Below, piece after piece: positions 12,954-20,523 of a DNA stretch of 64,000 nucleotides. Below the pieces are notes generated by a model. That model did not search any database, was not told where the DNA came from, and saw only the letters and a list, made by a program, of their open reading frames with translations. Each line of letters begins with the position of its first letter. Within the stretch, counting starts at the first letter, position 1. Position numbers and translations under genes: made by a program. This DNA comes from Dehalococcoidia bacterium (GTDB lineage Bacteria; Chloroflexota; Dehalococcoidia; UBA2979): the NCBI GenBank assembly GCA_965262725.1, contig OZ253555.1, forward strand, positions 1,216,001 through 1,280,000, given 5' to 3'.

Positions 12954-14105
12954 ATGGGCCTGCGCGGCACGGCGGCGATTATCGGCGTCGGCTCCGTTAA
13001 GCCGGAGCGGCGCATGCCGGGGCGCTCGGGTATCGGCGTTGCCGCCGAGGCCGGGATCAAGGCTGTGCGCGACGCCGGCCTCCGACGCGAGGACATCGAC
13101 GGGTTGATCACCCAGATGCCCGGTGAGACGCCGACGGCGCTTGCCGAGTACCTCGGGCTTCGCCCCACCTGGTCGCACGGCGTCGCGATGGAGGGGGCGA
13201 CCGGCACGACCTCCGTCACGCTTGCCGCGATGGCTCTCGATGCGGGGCTCGCGAAGAACGTCCTCGTCGTGATCGGAGGGCTCGCACCCGGCGGTGACAT
13301 GCCGACCGAGGGCGGAAGCCGCCTCCGCGAGCAGTTCGACGCGCCCTTCGGTCCAGCATCGGGCGCGACGGGCTGGTACGCGATGATCGCGAACCGCTAC
13401 GCCCATGAGTACGGCCTCACCGACGAGCAGCGCGCCGCCGTGGCCGTCCAGCAGCGCGAGAACGCCCACGGGAACCCCAACGCCATCTTCAAGGGCATTC
13501 CTCTGACCATCGAGGACGTCGTCACCTCGCGAATGATCTCCACGCCGCTGCGGCTGCTTGAGTGCGTGATGCCCACGGGCGGCGCCGAGGCGGTGCTGAT
13601 GACCTCGGCCGATCGTGCCAAGTCCGGCCCGCAGGAGCCGGTCTATCTGCTCGGCTCCGGGATGGCCGTCGACCACTACACGCTGGGCGGGGCATCCACC
13701 CTGACGACCTCGCCGGTCGCGATCTCGGCGCGGCGTGCCTTCGAGATGGCGGGCCTCGGGCCGCGGGACATGGACATGGTCTCGCTCTACGACTGCTACA
13801 CCATCACCGTTCTCATCTCGCTTGAGGACGCCGGCTTCGTGCCGAAGGGTCAGGCGGGCGCCTTCGTCGCGAGCACCGACATCACCTACAAGGGCGAGTT
13901 GCCGGTCAACACGCACGGCGGACAGCTCTCCTATGGGCAGCCCATGGTCGCCGGCGGGATGTCGCACGTGACGGAGTCGGTACTGCAGATGCAGGGGCGA
14001 GCGGGGGACCGGCAGGTCGAGAAGCTCGACTACTGCTTCGTCAACGGGTGAGGGGGCTTCCTGAGCGAGATGTGCTCGCTGGTCCTCGGGAAGGACCCCT
14101 CGTAG
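12954..14105 (+). CDS. thiolase-like (SCP-x/Ltp2-type) protein, predicted selenoprotein (TGA 14049-14051 read as Sec)
   Basis: AIIGVG, DAGLRREDIDGL, SRMISTPLRLLEC, LYDCYT, VNTHGGQLSYGQP. The ORF track stops at ...CFVNG, but the frame continues GGFLSEMCSLVLGKDPS* to TAG 14103-14105, which completes the usual family C-terminus. A hairpin follows the TGA. Confidence 0.85.
14052..14102 (+). promoter_or_regulatory. putative bacterial SECIS element
   Basis: 12 nt after the UGA: stem AGCGAG/CTCGCT closing loop ATGTG (17-nt minihelix); lower stems CTTCCTG/CGGGAAG and GGGG/CCCC. Confidence 0.6.
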
Positions 14106-14169
14106 CAGCGATGAGAATGCAATCGAGACCACCGGGCGGCCGTGTGCAGCGGGACGGGAGCTGATCCGG

Positions 14170-14589
14170 GTGAGCGAGGAATACGGTTTTCCCCTCCCGG
14201 TGCCGGGCGTCATTACGCAGCCCTTCTGGGATGGTCTGAAGGAGCATCGCCTCCTCGTGCAGCGCTGCCGCGCCGGGGGCCATCTCGTTCACTACCCGCG
14301 TGAATTCTGCCCGGTCTGCTACTCGGCGGATCTCGACTGGGAGCCCATGTCGGGCCGCGGGCGCGTCCACAGCTTCACGGTTGTGCACCGCGCCGCAAAC
14401 CCGGTCTTCCAGCAGGAGAAGGCACCGTACATCTTCGCGCTGATCCGGCTCGACGAGGGTCCGATCCTGACCTCGAATGTCGAGGGGATCCCGCACGAGG
14501 AGATACGGATCGAGATGCCGGTTGAGGTGTATTTCGACGACGTCACGGACGAGGTGACGCTTCCGAAGTTCCGCCCCGCCGCGCGCTAG
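14170..14589 (+). CDS. DUF35 family Zn-ribbon/OB-fold protein (thiolase partner)
   Basis: PFWDGLKEHRLLVQRC...YPREFCPVC...MSGRGRVHSFTVVH...PYIFALIRLDEGP...LPKFRP; adjacent to the thiolase-like gene. Confidence 0.92.
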   Translation: MSEEYGFPLPVPGVITQPFWDGLKEHRLLVQRCRAGGHLVHYPREFCPVCYSADLDWEPMSGRGRVHSFTVVHRAANPVFQQEKAPYIFALIRLDEGPILTSNVEGIPHEEIRIEMPVEVYFDDVTDEVTLPKFRPAAR

Positions 14590-14686
14590 TGCACCGAGGC
14601 CGGGATGTACCCGGTCGCGCATATGTCCGGAAGCAAGAGTCTCGCCGCATATGGGATGCGCGCGAACGCGAGAAGGGAGTCACGGG

Positions 14687-15058
14687 ATGAAAGTCGCCTA
14701 CGTTTTCAGTACATCGGGGCATACGGCGAGCTATAAGCTCGGTCAGATGATCCTGCCGCAGTTGGAGGCGGACGGACACGGCGTCGAGGTCGTCGGGATG
14801 ATGTTCTTCGACGACAACACGTTCATTCTCCGGCGCGGCGACCCGATCGGCGAGCGCCTGGCGAAGCAGGCCGCCGAGAAGAACATCCTGCTGATGATGT
14901 GCGATGGCTGCGCGCTCGAGCGCGGACTCGCGACCGGCGGCACCTGGCCCGAGAAGAGCGTCGCGGACGGCACGGTCGACGGAATCCACGTCGGCTGCTT
15001 CCCCGATCTCTACCAGGCGCTCGCCGGCAATCCGCCGGATCACGTGATCTCGCTCTAG
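14687..15058 (+). CDS. DsrE-related protein (SaoD/DsrE-like)
   Basis: MKVAYVFS...MILPQLE...HGVEVVGMMFFDDN...GERLAK...LMMCDGCALERGL...GCFPDLY...DHVISL; CxxC motif; AAGGGAG RBS. Family assignment is from memory of the pattern. Confidence 0.75.
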   Translation: MKVAYVFSTSGHTASYKLGQMILPQLEADGHGVEVVGMMFFDDNTFILRRGDPIGERLAKQAAEKNILLMMCDGCALERGLATGGTWPEKSVADGTVDGIHVGCFPDLYQALAGNPPDHVISL

Positions 15059-15098: not shown

Positions 15099-15872
15099 AT
15101 GCCAGGGGTCAGGGAGGAGCTGATCGGCGGGGAGATCGCGCTCGTCACCCTCGACTTTCCGCCGGTGAATGCGCTCACGCCGGAGGCCTTCCTCGACATC
15201 ACGGCCACGTTCGACTCCTATCTCGCGCGCCCCGAGGTCCGGGTCTGCGTGCTGACCGCCGAAGGGGAGCGCGCCTTCTGCGCGGGCGTCGACGTGCGCA
15301 GTCGCCTCCCCGAAGGGGAGACGCAGGCGAGTCCCGGGGCGCACTACCGCCGGGCGCGCGAGACCTTCAACGCCATCTACGAGAGCGCCGTGCCTGTGAT
15401 CGGGGCGATCAACGGCCCGGCTCTGGGAGCGGGTCTCGCCATCGCCGCATCGTGCGACTACCTCGTGGCATCGACCCGCGCGAGCTTCGGCCTCCCCGAG
15501 ATCGATGTCGGGCTGCTCGGCGGTGCCCGGCATCTGCAACGCCTCTTCCCCCAGGGCGTGACCCGGCGCATGCACTACACCGCCGCGCGGGCGACGGCCG
15601 AGGAGGCGTACCGGCACGGCGCGGTGCACGCCGTGGTGCCGCCGGATGAACTCCTCGAGGCCGCGCTGGCCGAGGCGCGCGTGGTCGCCTCCAAGATGCC
15701 GGGTGGTATCCGCCTCGCCAAGGAGACGCTCAACCAGATCGAGTGGATGGAGCTGAAGGCGGGCTACCTCTACGAGCAGACGCGCACCGAGATCCTCCAG
15801 CGCACGGAGGACGCCGCGGAGGCGAAGCGGGCCTTCCTCGAGCGCCGTCCGCCCCGCTTCACCGGGAGCTGA
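15099..15872 (+). CDS. enoyl-CoA hydratase/isomerase (crotonase) family protein
   Basis: PPVNAL, AFCAGVD, PVIGAINGPALGAG, FGLPEIDVGLLGG, AFLERRPPRF. Confidence 0.92.
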   Translation: MPGVREELIGGEIALVTLDFPPVNALTPEAFLDITATFDSYLARPEVRVCVLTAEGERAFCAGVDVRSRLPEGETQASPGAHYRRARETFNAIYESAVPVIGAINGPALGAGLAIAASCDYLVASTRASFGLPEIDVGLLGGARHLQRLFPQGVTRRMHYTAARATAEEAYRHGAVHAVVPPDELLEAALAEARVVASKMPGGIRLAKETLNQIEWMELKAGYLYEQTRTEILQRTEDAAEAKRAFLERRPPRFTGS

Positions 15873-15908: not shown

Positions 15909-16856
15909 TCACGCGGTGGGGGACGGCCCCGGGCGATCGGCCGCAGGCGCCGCCCGATCGCGACGTGCTCGAGCGGCCGCCGCTTGCTCAGCGGCGTGGT
16001 AGGAGCTGCGCACCAGCGGGCCGGCCTCGACATGCGCGAATCCGAGTGAGAGCGCGTAGTCCCGCAGCGCCTCGAACTCATCCGGATGCCAGTAGCGCGC
16101 GACCGGGAGGTGCTTCGCCGTCGGCCGCAGGTACTGCCCGACCGTGAGCAGGTCGCAGCCCTGCTCGCGCAGGTCCTCGAAGGTGCGGTGGAGCTGCTCC
16201 ACGCGCTCGCCCAGACCGACCATCAGCCCCGACTTCGTCAGCATAGTCGGGTCGATCTTGTTGACGCGACGCAGCAATTCCAGGGAGCGGTCGTAGCGAC
16301 CCTTAGGCCGAACGCGAGGGTAGAGCTCGGCCACGGTCTCGGTATTGTGGTTGAGGACGGCGGGCCGGGCCTCCACGACAGTCGCGAGCGCCTCGCGGTC
16401 CCCCTCGAAGTCCGGGATCAGCACTTCGACCTCGCAGGTGGGGCGGCGGTGACGGACCGCACGGATGCAGGCGGCGAAGATCGAGGCGCCGCCGTCGGCC
16501 ACATCGTCGCGGTTCACCGCCGTGATCACCGCGTAGTCGAGGCCCATCGTCTCGACCGACTGCGAGAGGCGCAGTGGTTCGAGCTGGTCGATGGCGCCGG
16601 GCCGCCCGGACGTCACGGCGCAGAAGCCACACGCGCGCGTGCAGGTGTCCCCGAGGATCATGAAGGTCGCGGTACCAGAGTTGAAGCACTCGCCGATGTT
16701 GGGGCAGCGTGCCTCCTCGCACACGGTGTGGAGAGAGCGATCGCGGAGCAGGACGCGAATCTCCTCGAAGCGCTCCCCGGAGGGGAAGCGCGCGCGGAAC
16801 CACGGCGGCTTGCGCTCGCGGACGCGTGATCGCCGGCTCGTCGGCGCGCTAGTCAC
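15909..16856 (-). CDS. lipA: lipoyl synthase
   Basis: CEEARCPNIGEC, CTRACGFC radical-SAM motif, GQYLRP, GPLVRSSYHA. Confidence 0.97.
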   Translation of the reverse strand: MTSAPTSRRSRVRERKPPWFRARFPSGERFEEIRVLLRDRSLHTVCEEARCPNIGECFNSGTATFMILGDTCTRACGFCAVTSGRPGAIDQLEPLRLSQSVETMGLDYAVITAVNRDDVADGGASIFAACIRAVRHRRPTCEVEVLIPDFEGDREALATVVEARPAVLNHNTETVAELYPRVRPKGRYDRSLELLRRVNKIDPTMLTKSGLMVGLGERVEQLHRTFEDLREQGCDLLTVGQYLRPTAKHLPVARYWHPDEFEALRDYALSLGFAHVEAGPLVRSSYHAAEQAAAARARRDRAAPAADRPGPSPTA

Positions 16857-17595
16857 GACCGACCCCTCCCGCGGGGAGCGGCACCGCGCCCTCCCCGGCC
16901 TCGGCCGGCACCAGCTCCGCGTCGAAGCGCCGCTCGAACGCCGTGCCGAGCGCCGCCTCCGCCTCGGGCATCGCCACTGAGCGCCCGAGCGCGCGCTCGA
17001 GCGATGTCACGCCCGCATCCCGTATGCCGCACGGGACGATTGCATCGAACCAGCCGAGGTCCGTGCTCACGTTGAGTGCGAGCCCGTGCGCGGAGATGCC
17101 CAGCCGGATGCGGACGCCGACGGCCGCGATCTTCTCCAGAATCCCGTCCGGTCGGCCGTGCGCCGTCCACACGCCGGGTCGGCCAGAAACGCGCTCGGCC
17201 GGCACGCCGAAGTCGGCGAGCGTGTCGATCACCGTCGCCTCGAGCATGCGTACATAATCCGCCGCTCGCAGTCCGCGCCGTCTCAGATCGAGGATGGGGT
17301 ATACGACGAGCTGGCCGGGGCCGTGGAAGGTGATGTCGCCGCCCCGGTCCACCTGCTCCAGCGCCGCTCCCCTCGCCACGAGCTCGGCGGCGGGCACCAG
17401 CAGGTGCTCGAGGCCGCGCCCGTCGCCGCGGCTTCCGCTGCGGGCGCCGATCGTGTAGACGGGGGCGTGCTGGAGCAGCGCGAGCCGCTCAGCCCCTCCG
17501 CCTGCGGCGAGCGAGGCGTGCGCGCCCTGCATCCACGCCCGGGCGTCGGCGTACGAGATGGTGCCGGGGCGGTCGAGAAGGACAGGGCTCGCCAC
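16849..17595 (-). CDS. lipB: lipoyl(octanoyl) transferase
   Basis: LQHAPVYTIG, DRGGDITFHGPGQLVVYPILDL, KIAAVG, HGLALNV, IVPCGI; GTG start 6 nt after a TACGCT -10-like box. Confidence 0.95.
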   Translation of the reverse strand: MASPVLLDRPGTISYADARAWMQGAHASLAAGGGAERLALLQHAPVYTIGARSGSRGDGRGLEHLLVPAAELVARGAALEQVDRGGDITFHGPGQLVVYPILDLRRRGLRAADYVRMLEATVIDTLADFGVPAERVSGRPGVWTAHGRPDGILEKIAAVGVRIRLGISAHGLALNVSTDLGWFDAIVPCGIRDAGVTSLERALGRSVAMPEAEAALGTAFERRFDAELVPAEAGEGAVPLPAGGVGRD

Positions 17596-17736
17596 GCCGG
17601 TAGCGTACCTCACGAGCATGGCGGGTGGGGTAAAGTGTTCTCCCCTCGGCGGCGCGTGCCGCCTCGCGGCGGGGGATGATCTCCACGATGCGCGCCGCGG
17701 CGGGTGAGCCCGCTGCCGCGCGGAACGGGTGAGGCG

Positions 17737-20523
<2,787 letters not shown>

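Follow-up and report, generated by a model that had tools for sequence, protein, structure and literature searches.

In this study, a stretch of 64,000 nucleotides from a Dehalococcoidia bacterium (assembly GCA_965262725.1, contig OZ253555.1, positions 1,216,001 to 1,280,000 of the forward strand; hereafter the window, with a G+C content of about 70%) was investigated, and we observed in it a gene of the thiolase fold that is interrupted by an in-frame TGA and continues beyond it. Our data suggest, with a probability of roughly 0.85 to 0.9, that this is a genuine bacterial selenoprotein gene of an uncatalogued family, in which selenocysteine (Sec, written U in motifs) would be inserted at residue 366. 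The whole is best explained, at a similarly high level of confidence, by the decoding of a conserved UGA in a predicted protein resembling the bile-acid side-chain aldolase Sal, with a catalytic role that Sec366 would take on. The three features that carry this finding are as follows.

12954..14105, forward strand: candidate selenoprotein gene, thiolase-fold and Sal/Ltp2-like; 383 residues including U366, from the ATG at 12954 to the true stop TAG at 14103-14105.
14049..14051, forward strand: in-frame TGA, candidate Sec codon 366, in the motif V-N-G-U-G-G; shared by 75 distinct sequences.
14052..14102, forward strand: the 17 codons after the UGA (GGFLSEMCSLVLGKDPS), including the putative oxyanion-hole residue Gly368 and the last beta-strand (372-379).

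An earlier model-made note drawn from the letters alone, here called the sequence-only reading, had reported that the open reading frame (ORF) halts at the TGA and that the same frame runs on to a TAG, which our check of the sequence confirms; the predicted peptide across the read-through site is ...FVNG-U-GGFLSEMCSLVLGK. It had also held that the tail supplies a Gly-Gly turn and a final beta-strand, and with this both the Pfam coverage and the structure model agree. The Pfam profile Thiolase_C_1 matches residues 236-380 over profile positions 1-144 of 144 (E 1.2e-51), and since the match covers the whole profile, the domain is complete only with the tail translated. In an AlphaFold2 model made from 54 sequences (pLDDT 91.5, pTM 0.92, with pLDDT below 50 at residues 114-136), strands 360-367 and 372-379 form the final beta-hairpin at block-mean confidence above 90. 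The tail is likewise homologous to the C-terminus of full-length solved relatives, namely 9myr (...SGTGGVMSEQGALIL) and 4u4e (...HGTGGVLSSAGTAILG).

The TGA falls in one identical column, V-N-G-U-G-G, in the 30 loci first examined, which are 42-97% identical, and with extra fetched regions and named records added it was found at column 366 in 75 distinct sequences, all of which, where named, belong to Dehalococcoidia, SAR202 or Chloroflexota. Among 41 related genomes, the best match carries the in-frame TGA in 15 (43-97% identity). A sample of 401 genomes of the class gave 133 with a match at E <=1e-70, and among the 150 matches listed in the class-wide search, 64 hold one TGA, 46 two and 40 none, as counted by hand. 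In a scan of 185,579 species, whose search patterns include Y-D-C and so bias it at column 281, the Sec type made up 26 rows (24 records) among the best 80 loci, again all from Dehalococcoidia, SAR202 or Chloroflexota, and homologues from other phyla among these 80 carry Asn, Thr or Gln at column 366. The conservation of the TGA exceeds chance. No in-frame stop was noticed in the genome's other three paralogues. It was also observed that three distant members of the family (36-38% identity) contain one in-frame TAG each (G021:C3:73628-74758, G020:C4:101244-102350 and G020:C5:114499-115590).

Positions 14049-14051 show no difference in other assemblies, being identical in contigs of sequencing runs from three other studies, although two of those contigs match the entire stretch almost exactly and may be the source of this DNA itself. 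The same TGA in these contigs and in related genomes rules out a sequencing or assembly error. A 206-nt contig of run X19 also spans the TGA; its RNA label is only a guess, and it was not counted as evidence of expression. A genome-wide reassignment of TGA was ruled out too, because TGA is the commonest stop and ends 1882 of 3348 open frames of at least 350 codons. With regard to the tail region, 50-nt contigs at higher depth from runs X2 and X11 match the window only at 14059-14105, with 2 differences, and two more short contigs of run X2 match only 14069-14099, one of them (record 7) continuing past 14099 as 240 unlike letters; these short contigs probably come from relatives sharing the conserved tail and hairpin region.

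Beyond the TGA, the conservation is of the coding type. When the 13 codons next to the TGA are compared with those of L030, an orthologue of 77% identity, 11 synonymous changes and 0 non-synonymous ones are counted, and over 30 sequences the variable columns after the TGA are distributed as 10/5/13 by codon position, while the +1 frame is closed by stops in 25 of the 30. The final stop of the TGA-bearing genes is TAA or TAG in 29 of 30, and TGA-less homologues end in TGA in 11 of 28. A real stop at the TGA, left by a conserved truncation or a shared nonsense mutation, with the downstream conservation due to an RNA element such as one for translational coupling to the following DUF35 gene, would be in keeping with the gene callers, which end the protein there (51 of the 120 closest clusters finish ...VNG), and with the stem-loop sitting just ahead of the DUF35 gene. 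It has, however, to contend with tail changes in L030 that are synonymous only, with a tail that is homologous to the C-terminus of full-length relatives and needed for the last beta-strand and the oxyanion-hole Gly, and with TGA-less genes that lack the hairpin despite the same DUF35 neighbour, and we give it the slimmest chance of all the explanations considered.

The machinery needed for Sec is present in this genome (3.67 Mb, one contig), in which selA, selB, selD and tRNA-Sec, the genes the sequence-only reading had pointed to as a check, were all detected above their curated cut-offs. The selA gene scored 542.9 bits, and the tRNA-Sec scored 71.6 bits (Rfam) and was called tRNA-SeC with anticodon TCA by ARAGORN. 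The other two are located as follows.

G000:C1:1290211-1291359 (L001), about 10 kb past the right end of the window: selB, 284.9 bits against a cut-off of 242.
G000:C1:2792527-2793462 (L010): selD, 356.9 bits.

The selD gene itself has an in-frame TGA in SCAG-U-AGK, and the UxxK of SelD is a catalogued Sec position (PMC13188914); its hairpin, GGGUC-CGGC-GACCC, has the loop 16 nt after the UGA. Across the 41 related genomes, selA was above cut-off in 13 of the 15 relatives with a TGA-type gene, the two exceptions being drafts of 71% and 73% completeness, and the TGA-type gene was found in 0 of the 6 selA-less genomes of at least 90% completeness. The assignment of residue 366 to Sec, as first proposed from the letters alone, is favoured by each of the three checks named there, through a TGA kept at 42-97% identity with a coding-type pattern downstream, the Sec machinery of the genome, and the unchanged TGA of independent assemblies.

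With reference to the residues that replace Sec, the count of TGA against Cys gave a divided outcome, as Cys is almost never found at column 366 but does appear as the counterpart of TGA at a second column, 281. In the best 150 representatives of 1.84 billion proteins, column 366 holds N in 30, T in 14, Q in 12, V, S and L in 10 each, and C in 2. The 120 closest database clusters divide into 51 that stop at ...VNG and 69 that run past column 366, and these 69 show Asn in 61, Lys in 1, Ile in 1, 6 that could not be placed, and Cys in 0. Where genes have two TGAs, the second falls on column 281 (Y-D-U-Y) in 17 of the 17 first examined and in further ones, so that column 281 is, judged by its codons, a clean Sec/Cys pair at what corresponds to the catalytic acid of CtSal, the Comamonas testosteroni enzyme. 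Such homologues with TGA at both 281 and 366 (L068, L070, L084-L096, L106, L107, L112, L114, L116, L117, L120-L123 and L156) are often tandem copies, and some Dehalococcoidia genomes of about 2 Mb hold up to four family members. A sub-clade (L097, L129-L133) reads V-N-T-U-R-G instead of V-N-G-U-G-G at column 366. In one instance, L100 (G393:C136:4792-5955, minus strand; 52% identical), the only TGA lies in V-G-K-U-G-S, next to or at the nucleophile position with a register ambiguous by one residue, and column 366 is Asn; this TGA may mark a third Sec position in the same active site.

A FastTree phylogeny of 158 sequences placed 72 Sec366 leaves inside a clade of 78 together with six Asn-type genes. 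Positions 78-80, 86, 89 and 90 (the nucleophile loop and helix), 204, 237, 305-310 and Met373, which lies opposite Sec on the last strand, split the Sec-type from the Asn/Thr-type sequences. In all, the two types are set apart by systematic differences at about 20 positions close to the active site, and the Sec-type active site seems to have been remodelled as a whole.

The search for a selenocysteine insertion sequence (SECIS) followed the bacterial SECIS (bSECIS) model, with a loop of 3-9 nt carrying G in its first two positions, a stem of at least 4 bp, a distance of 16-37 nt from the UGA and an energy <=-7.5 kcal/mol (PMC13188914, Fig. 2 legend). The p values given for hairpins are from Mann-Whitney tests and are overstated because the relatives are not independent. 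Three structures downstream of the UGA were compared, the last being taken from the minimum free energy (MFE) fold.

14064..14080, forward strand: hairpin A, AGCGAG/AUGUG/CUCGCU, 12 nt after the TGA; apex of the long MFE stem.
14081..14097, forward strand: hairpin B, GGUCCU/CGGGA/AGGACC, with its loop 35 nt after the UGA; family-wide SECIS candidate.
14050..14101, forward strand: long irregular stem-loop of the MFE fold, an alternative to hairpin B.

The MFE fold of 14049-14108 reaches -30.4 kcal/mol (z = -2.63), a stability matched by 1 of 200 dinucleotide shuffles. Scanned under the bSECIS model, the window gave -16.3 kcal/mol at spacing 16, plus hairpin B at spacing 35. In the first set of sequences, a hairpin <=-7.5 kcal/mol was found in 29 of 29 TGA genes and 14 of 28 TGA-less homologues (p = 2.6e-6), and in the full set the bSECIS search was passed by 93% of 75 TGA genes (median -12.2) and 52% of 87 controls without TGA (median -7.8; p = 2e-13). 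The two hairpins did not contribute equally. Hairpin A, at spacing 16-24, has a median of -3.9 in TGA genes against 0 in TGA-less genes (p = 0.001) and discriminates weakly, whereas hairpin B, at spacing 30-37, has a median of -8.3 with 71% at <=-5 in the former, against 0.0 and 7% in the latter (p = 1e-14). The minihelix of 17 nt that the sequence-only reading placed 12 nt after the UGA on a longer stem is present and caps the MFE stem, but it is mainly hairpin B that tracks the TGA.

Hairpin B carries the loops GGUC (26 sequences), CGGGA (13), GUU (8) and GUUC (6), and in other clades it takes forms such as GUCCUCG-GGUC-CGAGGAC or GGUGCUCG-GUU-CGAGCGCC. In the six Asn-type genes nested in the Sec clade it is weak or absent, at -4.1 at best, though their peptides are near-identical to those of the Sec type (LVLGSAATL against LVLGSGATL, for example), and of the Sec-type sequences beside them, 9 of 10 have hairpin B at -7.8 to -13.7 and one (L062) at -6.2. 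The orthologue L030, from an AT-richer genome, retains both hairpins through paired changes (AGUGAA/UUCACU and GGUUCUA/UAGAACC). Covariation as such gave evidence in both directions: in a fixed-column count for hairpin A, 71.6% of cells were paired and 12 were double-change cells, a level reached by 0 of 500 shuffles, but RNAalifold recovered no shared structure. The most likely SECIS is hairpin B, whose candidate G-containing apical loop stands 35-37 nt after the UGA. With Rfam, no bacterial SECIS family was matched, the only hit being a chance match to mir-611 (E 0.41).

Several of these observations weigh against the selenoprotein reading and have to be set beside the evidence for it. Half of the GC-rich TGA-less controls also reach the energy threshold, and the long MFE stem and hairpin B are mutually exclusive in the window. 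Hairpin A has its loop G in position 3, a caveat already raised from the letters alone and one that stands, as this puts it outside the bSECIS model, while hairpin B sits at the far limit of the permitted spacing (35-37 nt in a range of 16-37). On the fixed TGA-anchored alignment, RNAalifold yielded only a weak 5-bp outer helix; as their register differs from one clade to the next, the hairpins escape a consensus by fixed columns. After the additional TGA of the two-Sec relatives, the first of the two in reading order, hairpins that fit the bSECIS model are not enriched (median -7.5 against -7.0, p = 0.63). At column 366, Cys, the usual counterpart of Sec, is nearly absent and the nearest TGA-less relatives have Asn; Cys homologues at a Sec column are usual for selenoproteins, not obligatory. 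The support for the Sec clade is weak (0.63). Finally, the hydratase encoded downstream of the gene has a counterpart at this place in only 4 of 59 Sec-type loci, the flanks of many of these loci being short.

The lack of Cys counterparts at column 366 and the atypical SECIS geometry would both suit a UGA decoded by a near-cognate tRNA as a standard amino acid (Trp, Cys, Gly or Arg), or recoded in some way other than as Sec. Such decoding is hard to reconcile with a complete Sec system that is present and in use (selD), with a TGA-type gene that tracks selA among relatives and hairpins that track the TGA, and with the keeping of TGA across 42-97% identity where a sense codon would serve at no cost; we regard it as very improbable, and insertion of Sec as the reading to be preferred.

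As to the protein itself, the positions that define its active site are as follows.

13194..13196, forward strand: G81, where thiolases have their nucleophilic Cys (CtSal Gly89), from the profile alignment with the genome's classical thiolase.
13788..13799, forward strand: Y279-D280-C281-Y282, corresponding to CtSal Y302-D-C304-Y; column 281 is TGA in two-Sec relatives.
13923..13940, forward strand: Q324 to Q329 (GGQLSYGQP), equivalent to Gln347 and Gln352 of CtSal; Q329 stands where GHP has its His.

No NCBIfam model was matched at its cut-off, the best being PRK06158 with 320 bits against 421, and the thiolase model TIGR01930 gave 23.4 bits against 240.55. The closest solved structures are 9MYR (Sal with the DUF35 protein Shy), 4U4E (a putative thiolase of Sphaerobacter) and 6OK1 (Ltp2 with the DUF35 protein ChsH2), and the match to 9MYR is strong (phmmer 7e-84, about 40% identity, Foldseek E 8e-47, TM 0.91). 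The genome's classical thiolase, P0153, displays the motifs NRICGSG, NEAF, GHP and CIGGGQG, and in the profile alignment with it G81 pairs with the Cys of C-G-S, Y279-D-C281-Y with N-E-A-F, and Q329 with the His of GHP. The absence of the N-domain nucleophilic Cys and the reading of GHP as GQP, both remarked on in the earlier note, are borne out in this way. With G81 in the place of the nucleophilic Cys, Y279 in that of the NEAF Asn and Q329 in that of the GHP His, the protein is not a classical thiolase, and in the absence of the nucleophile no classical thiolysis is possible. It is predicted to be a thiolase-fold enzyme of the Sal/Ltp2 aldolase branch, with the CtSal residues kept, and not a thiolase.

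According to the CtSal paper (PMC12329534), Tyr302 is the catalytic base and Cys304 the catalytic acid in Y-D-C-Y, the thiolate may be stabilised by Gln347 and Gln352, the nucleophile has given way to a Gly, and the oxyanion hole consists of the Gly391 amide and Gln161. By ungapped alignments with an offset of +23, the equivalents here are Y279, C281, Q324, Q329, G81 and G368, all of them invariant in 19 Sec-type sequences (alignment A3); Gln161 aligns with a low-confidence region, 'GPASGATGW'. U366 corresponds to CtSal Thr389, and G368 to Gly391, whose amide belongs to the oxyanion hole. The C-x-G (Cbeta4-Cbeta5) loop of human T2 thiolase contains the acid/base Cys413 together with Gly415, and N(Gly415) forms oxyanion hole 2 (PMC6790690); SCP2-type thiolases are described in PMC7682436 as being without the C-x-G Cys and taking their catalytic Cys from H-D-C-F. 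The alignment with P0153 ends at residue 343, and for this reason the C-x-G mapping rests on the published residue numbers of CtSal and T2. U366-G367-G368 would occupy C-x-G, its spacing to Gly368/Gly391 being equal to that of T2 C413-x-G415, and the register that the earlier note had feared to be off by one falls into line through G368 = Gly391 = T2 Gly415. Sec366 would accordingly lie at the position of the acid/base Cys of classical thiolases, in the Cbeta4-Cbeta5 loop, and a chalcogen residue would be present in both loops, as Cys281 and as Sec366.

The mechanism that we propose begins with the UGA at 14049-14051, which would be read as Sec by Sec-tRNA(Sec) and SelB, a stem-loop within the next 50 nt or so directing the insertion. 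The product would be the full protein of 383 residues, paired with a DUF35 zinc-ribbon/OB protein, in which Tyr279 would act as base and Cys281 as acid, with Gln324 and Gln329 beside them and the Gly368 amide in the oxyanion hole. The reaction would be a retro-aldol or related C-C cleavage or formation on a substrate of the 3-hydroxyacyl-coenzyme A (CoA) type, and the selenol or selenolate of Sec366, placed beside Cys281 at the alpha-carbon of the substrate, would donate or accept the proton, or act in relay with Cys281. Both members of the dyad would be selenium in those relatives that have TGA at the two columns. What is observed here is the conservation of the TGA, the constraint on the codons after it, the Sec genes, the excess of hairpins and the residue mapping; we infer the insertion of selenium, the hairpin bound by SelB, the substrate and the chemical role of Sec alike, the catalytic role of the selenol being suggested by its position alone. 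Among the roles that Sec might take, that of acid/base partner of Cys281 in a Sal-like C-C lyase is preferred over a redox switch or a relocated nucleophile. A broader proposition, which we hold only tentatively, is that this Dehalococcoidia/SAR202 clade rebuilt a two-chalcogen site in a nucleophile-less thiolase fold, with Sec at C-x-G and Cys or Sec at H-D-C-F, the selenol being a covalent or acid/base catalyst of the cleavage of C-C bonds in CoA esters. If so, it would be the first selenoenzyme of C-C bond chemistry, with double-Sec forms capable of a diselenide and with no functional Cys equivalent.

A redox role, in which Sec is inserted but serves as a switch or a protective partner, forming a selenylsulfide with Cys281 or a diselenide and so gating the aldolase or guarding the Cys from over-oxidation, appears somewhat unlikely. 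The majority of known selenoproteins are redox proteins (PMC13188914), Sec366 and Cys/Sec281 are probably neighbours because they come from the loops that give the acid/base Cys in classical and SCP2-type thiolases respectively, and the replacement of Sec by Asn in nested relatives fits a non-essential catalytic role; but no thioredoxin-like partner and no CxxU-type motif were seen, column 366 lies in the oxyanion-hole loop beside the alpha-carbon of the substrate, and the change of positions 78-80, 86, 89, 90 and 373 along with it suggests a remodelled site and not an added switch. C361 and C374 were also considered as selenylsulfide partners and judged unlikely, as alternate residues of strands 360-367 and 372-379 would face opposite sides.

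That Sec366 is instead a relocated covalent nucleophile, passing through an acyl-selenoester intermediate as in a true "selenothiolase", is less probable again and in our view unlikely. The position that it would take, that of the classical C-x-G, faces the alpha-carbon and not the beta-carbonyl in classical thiolases (PMC6790690), the GHP His of oxyanion hole 1 is Gln here, and the full CtSal aldolase set is kept, even though the active site, its N-terminal nucleophile lost (G81), would gain a very good one, the residue that precedes the nucleophile position shifts from Gly to Met, His, Gln or Glu in Sec-type genes specifically, and the TGA of L100 stands in U-G-S, which resembles the thiolase fingerprint C-x-S.

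The neighbourhood of the gene contains the following two genes.

14170..14589, forward strand: DUF35 protein with ChsH2-type zinc ribbon and OB fold (Pfam zf-ChsH2 1.3e-12, OB_ChsH2_C 1.8e-21).
15099..15872, forward strand: enoyl-CoA hydratase of the crotonase family (Pfam ECH_1 4.6e-44).

A same-strand DUF35 homologue that begins no more than 400 nt past the gene was found in 52 of 59 Sec-type loci and in 70 of 81 TGA-less ones. It is possible that the hydratase supplies the 3-hydroxyacyl-CoA substrate, but the link is weak, and the 4 of 59 loci given above leave a conserved one unsupported. The other neighbours include alpha/beta hydrolases, an NmrA-like protein and lipoate enzymes, and no steroid-degradation genes were seen in the 10 neighbouring ORFs of the window that were scanned. 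Between the DUF35 and hydratase genes, an ORF of 135 codons (14651-15058, forward strand) has no Pfam match, and no more than 2 of 59 Sec-type loci have a homologue of it downstream; in DNA so rich in GC it may not be a gene. Further along, a frame of 1115 codons (16849-20196, reverse strand), adjoined by the lipoyl synthase gene at 15909-16856, has an LplA-B catalytic domain at its C-terminal end only (residues 882-1087), and its long N-terminal part is probably non-coding.

As regards novelty, database entries of this family bear no other names than "thiolase family protein" or "acetyl-CoA acetyltransferase". In Clostridium kluyveri, the "selenium-containing thiolase" reportedly contains selenomethionine, not Sec. 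A thiolase-fold or CoA-ester C-C lyase family is absent from the 119 families and subfamilies in Table 1 of the 2026 review PMC13188914, and none of the words thiolase, acetyltransferase, acyltransferase or lipid-transfer appears in the main text of that review, of deep-Sep or of BSepDB; their supplementary lists could still contain the family. Full-text literature searches on selenoproteins together with thiolase, Dehalococcoidia and SAR202 returned no such family in the listed titles or abstracts. The sequence-only reading had known of no Sec-thiolase family, and neither Table 1 of PMC13188914 nor the main texts of deep-Sep and BSepDB name one.

The family would add a CoA-ester C-C lyase outside the redox folds to the bacterial selenoproteome. 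Its genes are systematically mis-annotated as truncated proteins, as the 51 of 120 closest clusters ending in ...VNG make plain, and gene finding by Sec/Cys pairs would miss it because the counterpart residue is Asn. It is common in Dehalococcoidia, many of its members having two Sec codons, and it would help to account for the large selenoproteomes reported for Dehalococcoidia in the BSepDB paper. For enzymology, natural Asn, Cys/Sec and Sec/Sec variants could be compared, with Sec at the classical acid/base position beside a Sal-type Cys.

Comparatively, the best solved relative is CtSal, the bile-acid side-chain aldolase of Comamonas testosteroni with its Shy DUF35 domain (PDB 9MYR; PMC12329534), with which the protein has in common Y-D-C-Y, the two Gln, a Gly in place of the nucleophile, an oxyanion-hole Gly that follows column 366 by two residues, and pairing with a DUF35 protein. 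The Sal type is further marked by retro-aldol activity on 22-hydroxy bile-acid CoA esters and by the Shy hydratase partner. The protein differs in that CtSal has Thr389 where Sec366 is predicted here, and in that the DUF35 of the CtSal system is fused to a hydratase of the MaoC type; the DUF35 protein described here has a gene to itself, and the hydratase nearby is of the crotonase type. The steroid aldolase TcLtp2-ChsH2(DUF35) (PDB 6OK1) has the same fold and DUF35 pairing (2e-47), and its catalytic Tyr294 corresponds to Y279; Ltp2, however, uses Y-D-H-F and Tyr344, where Cys281 replaces the His and Met331 aligns with Tyr344. With classical thiolases, of which P0153 and human T2 are examples and whose fingerprints are C-x-S, NEAF, GHP and C-x-GGG-x-G, the fold is again common, and Sec366-G-G would stand in their C-x-G loop. 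SCP2-type thiolases take their catalytic Cys from the x-D-C-x loop and normally lack the C-x-G Cys, while here both loops would carry a chalcogen and the nucleophile is missing. The catalogued bacterial selenoproteins (PMC13188914) display the same signature, in that a stem-loop follows an in-frame UGA and the genome contains selABCD; their families are mostly thioredoxin-fold or redox proteins with Cys counterparts, whereas in the family described here the counterpart is Asn.

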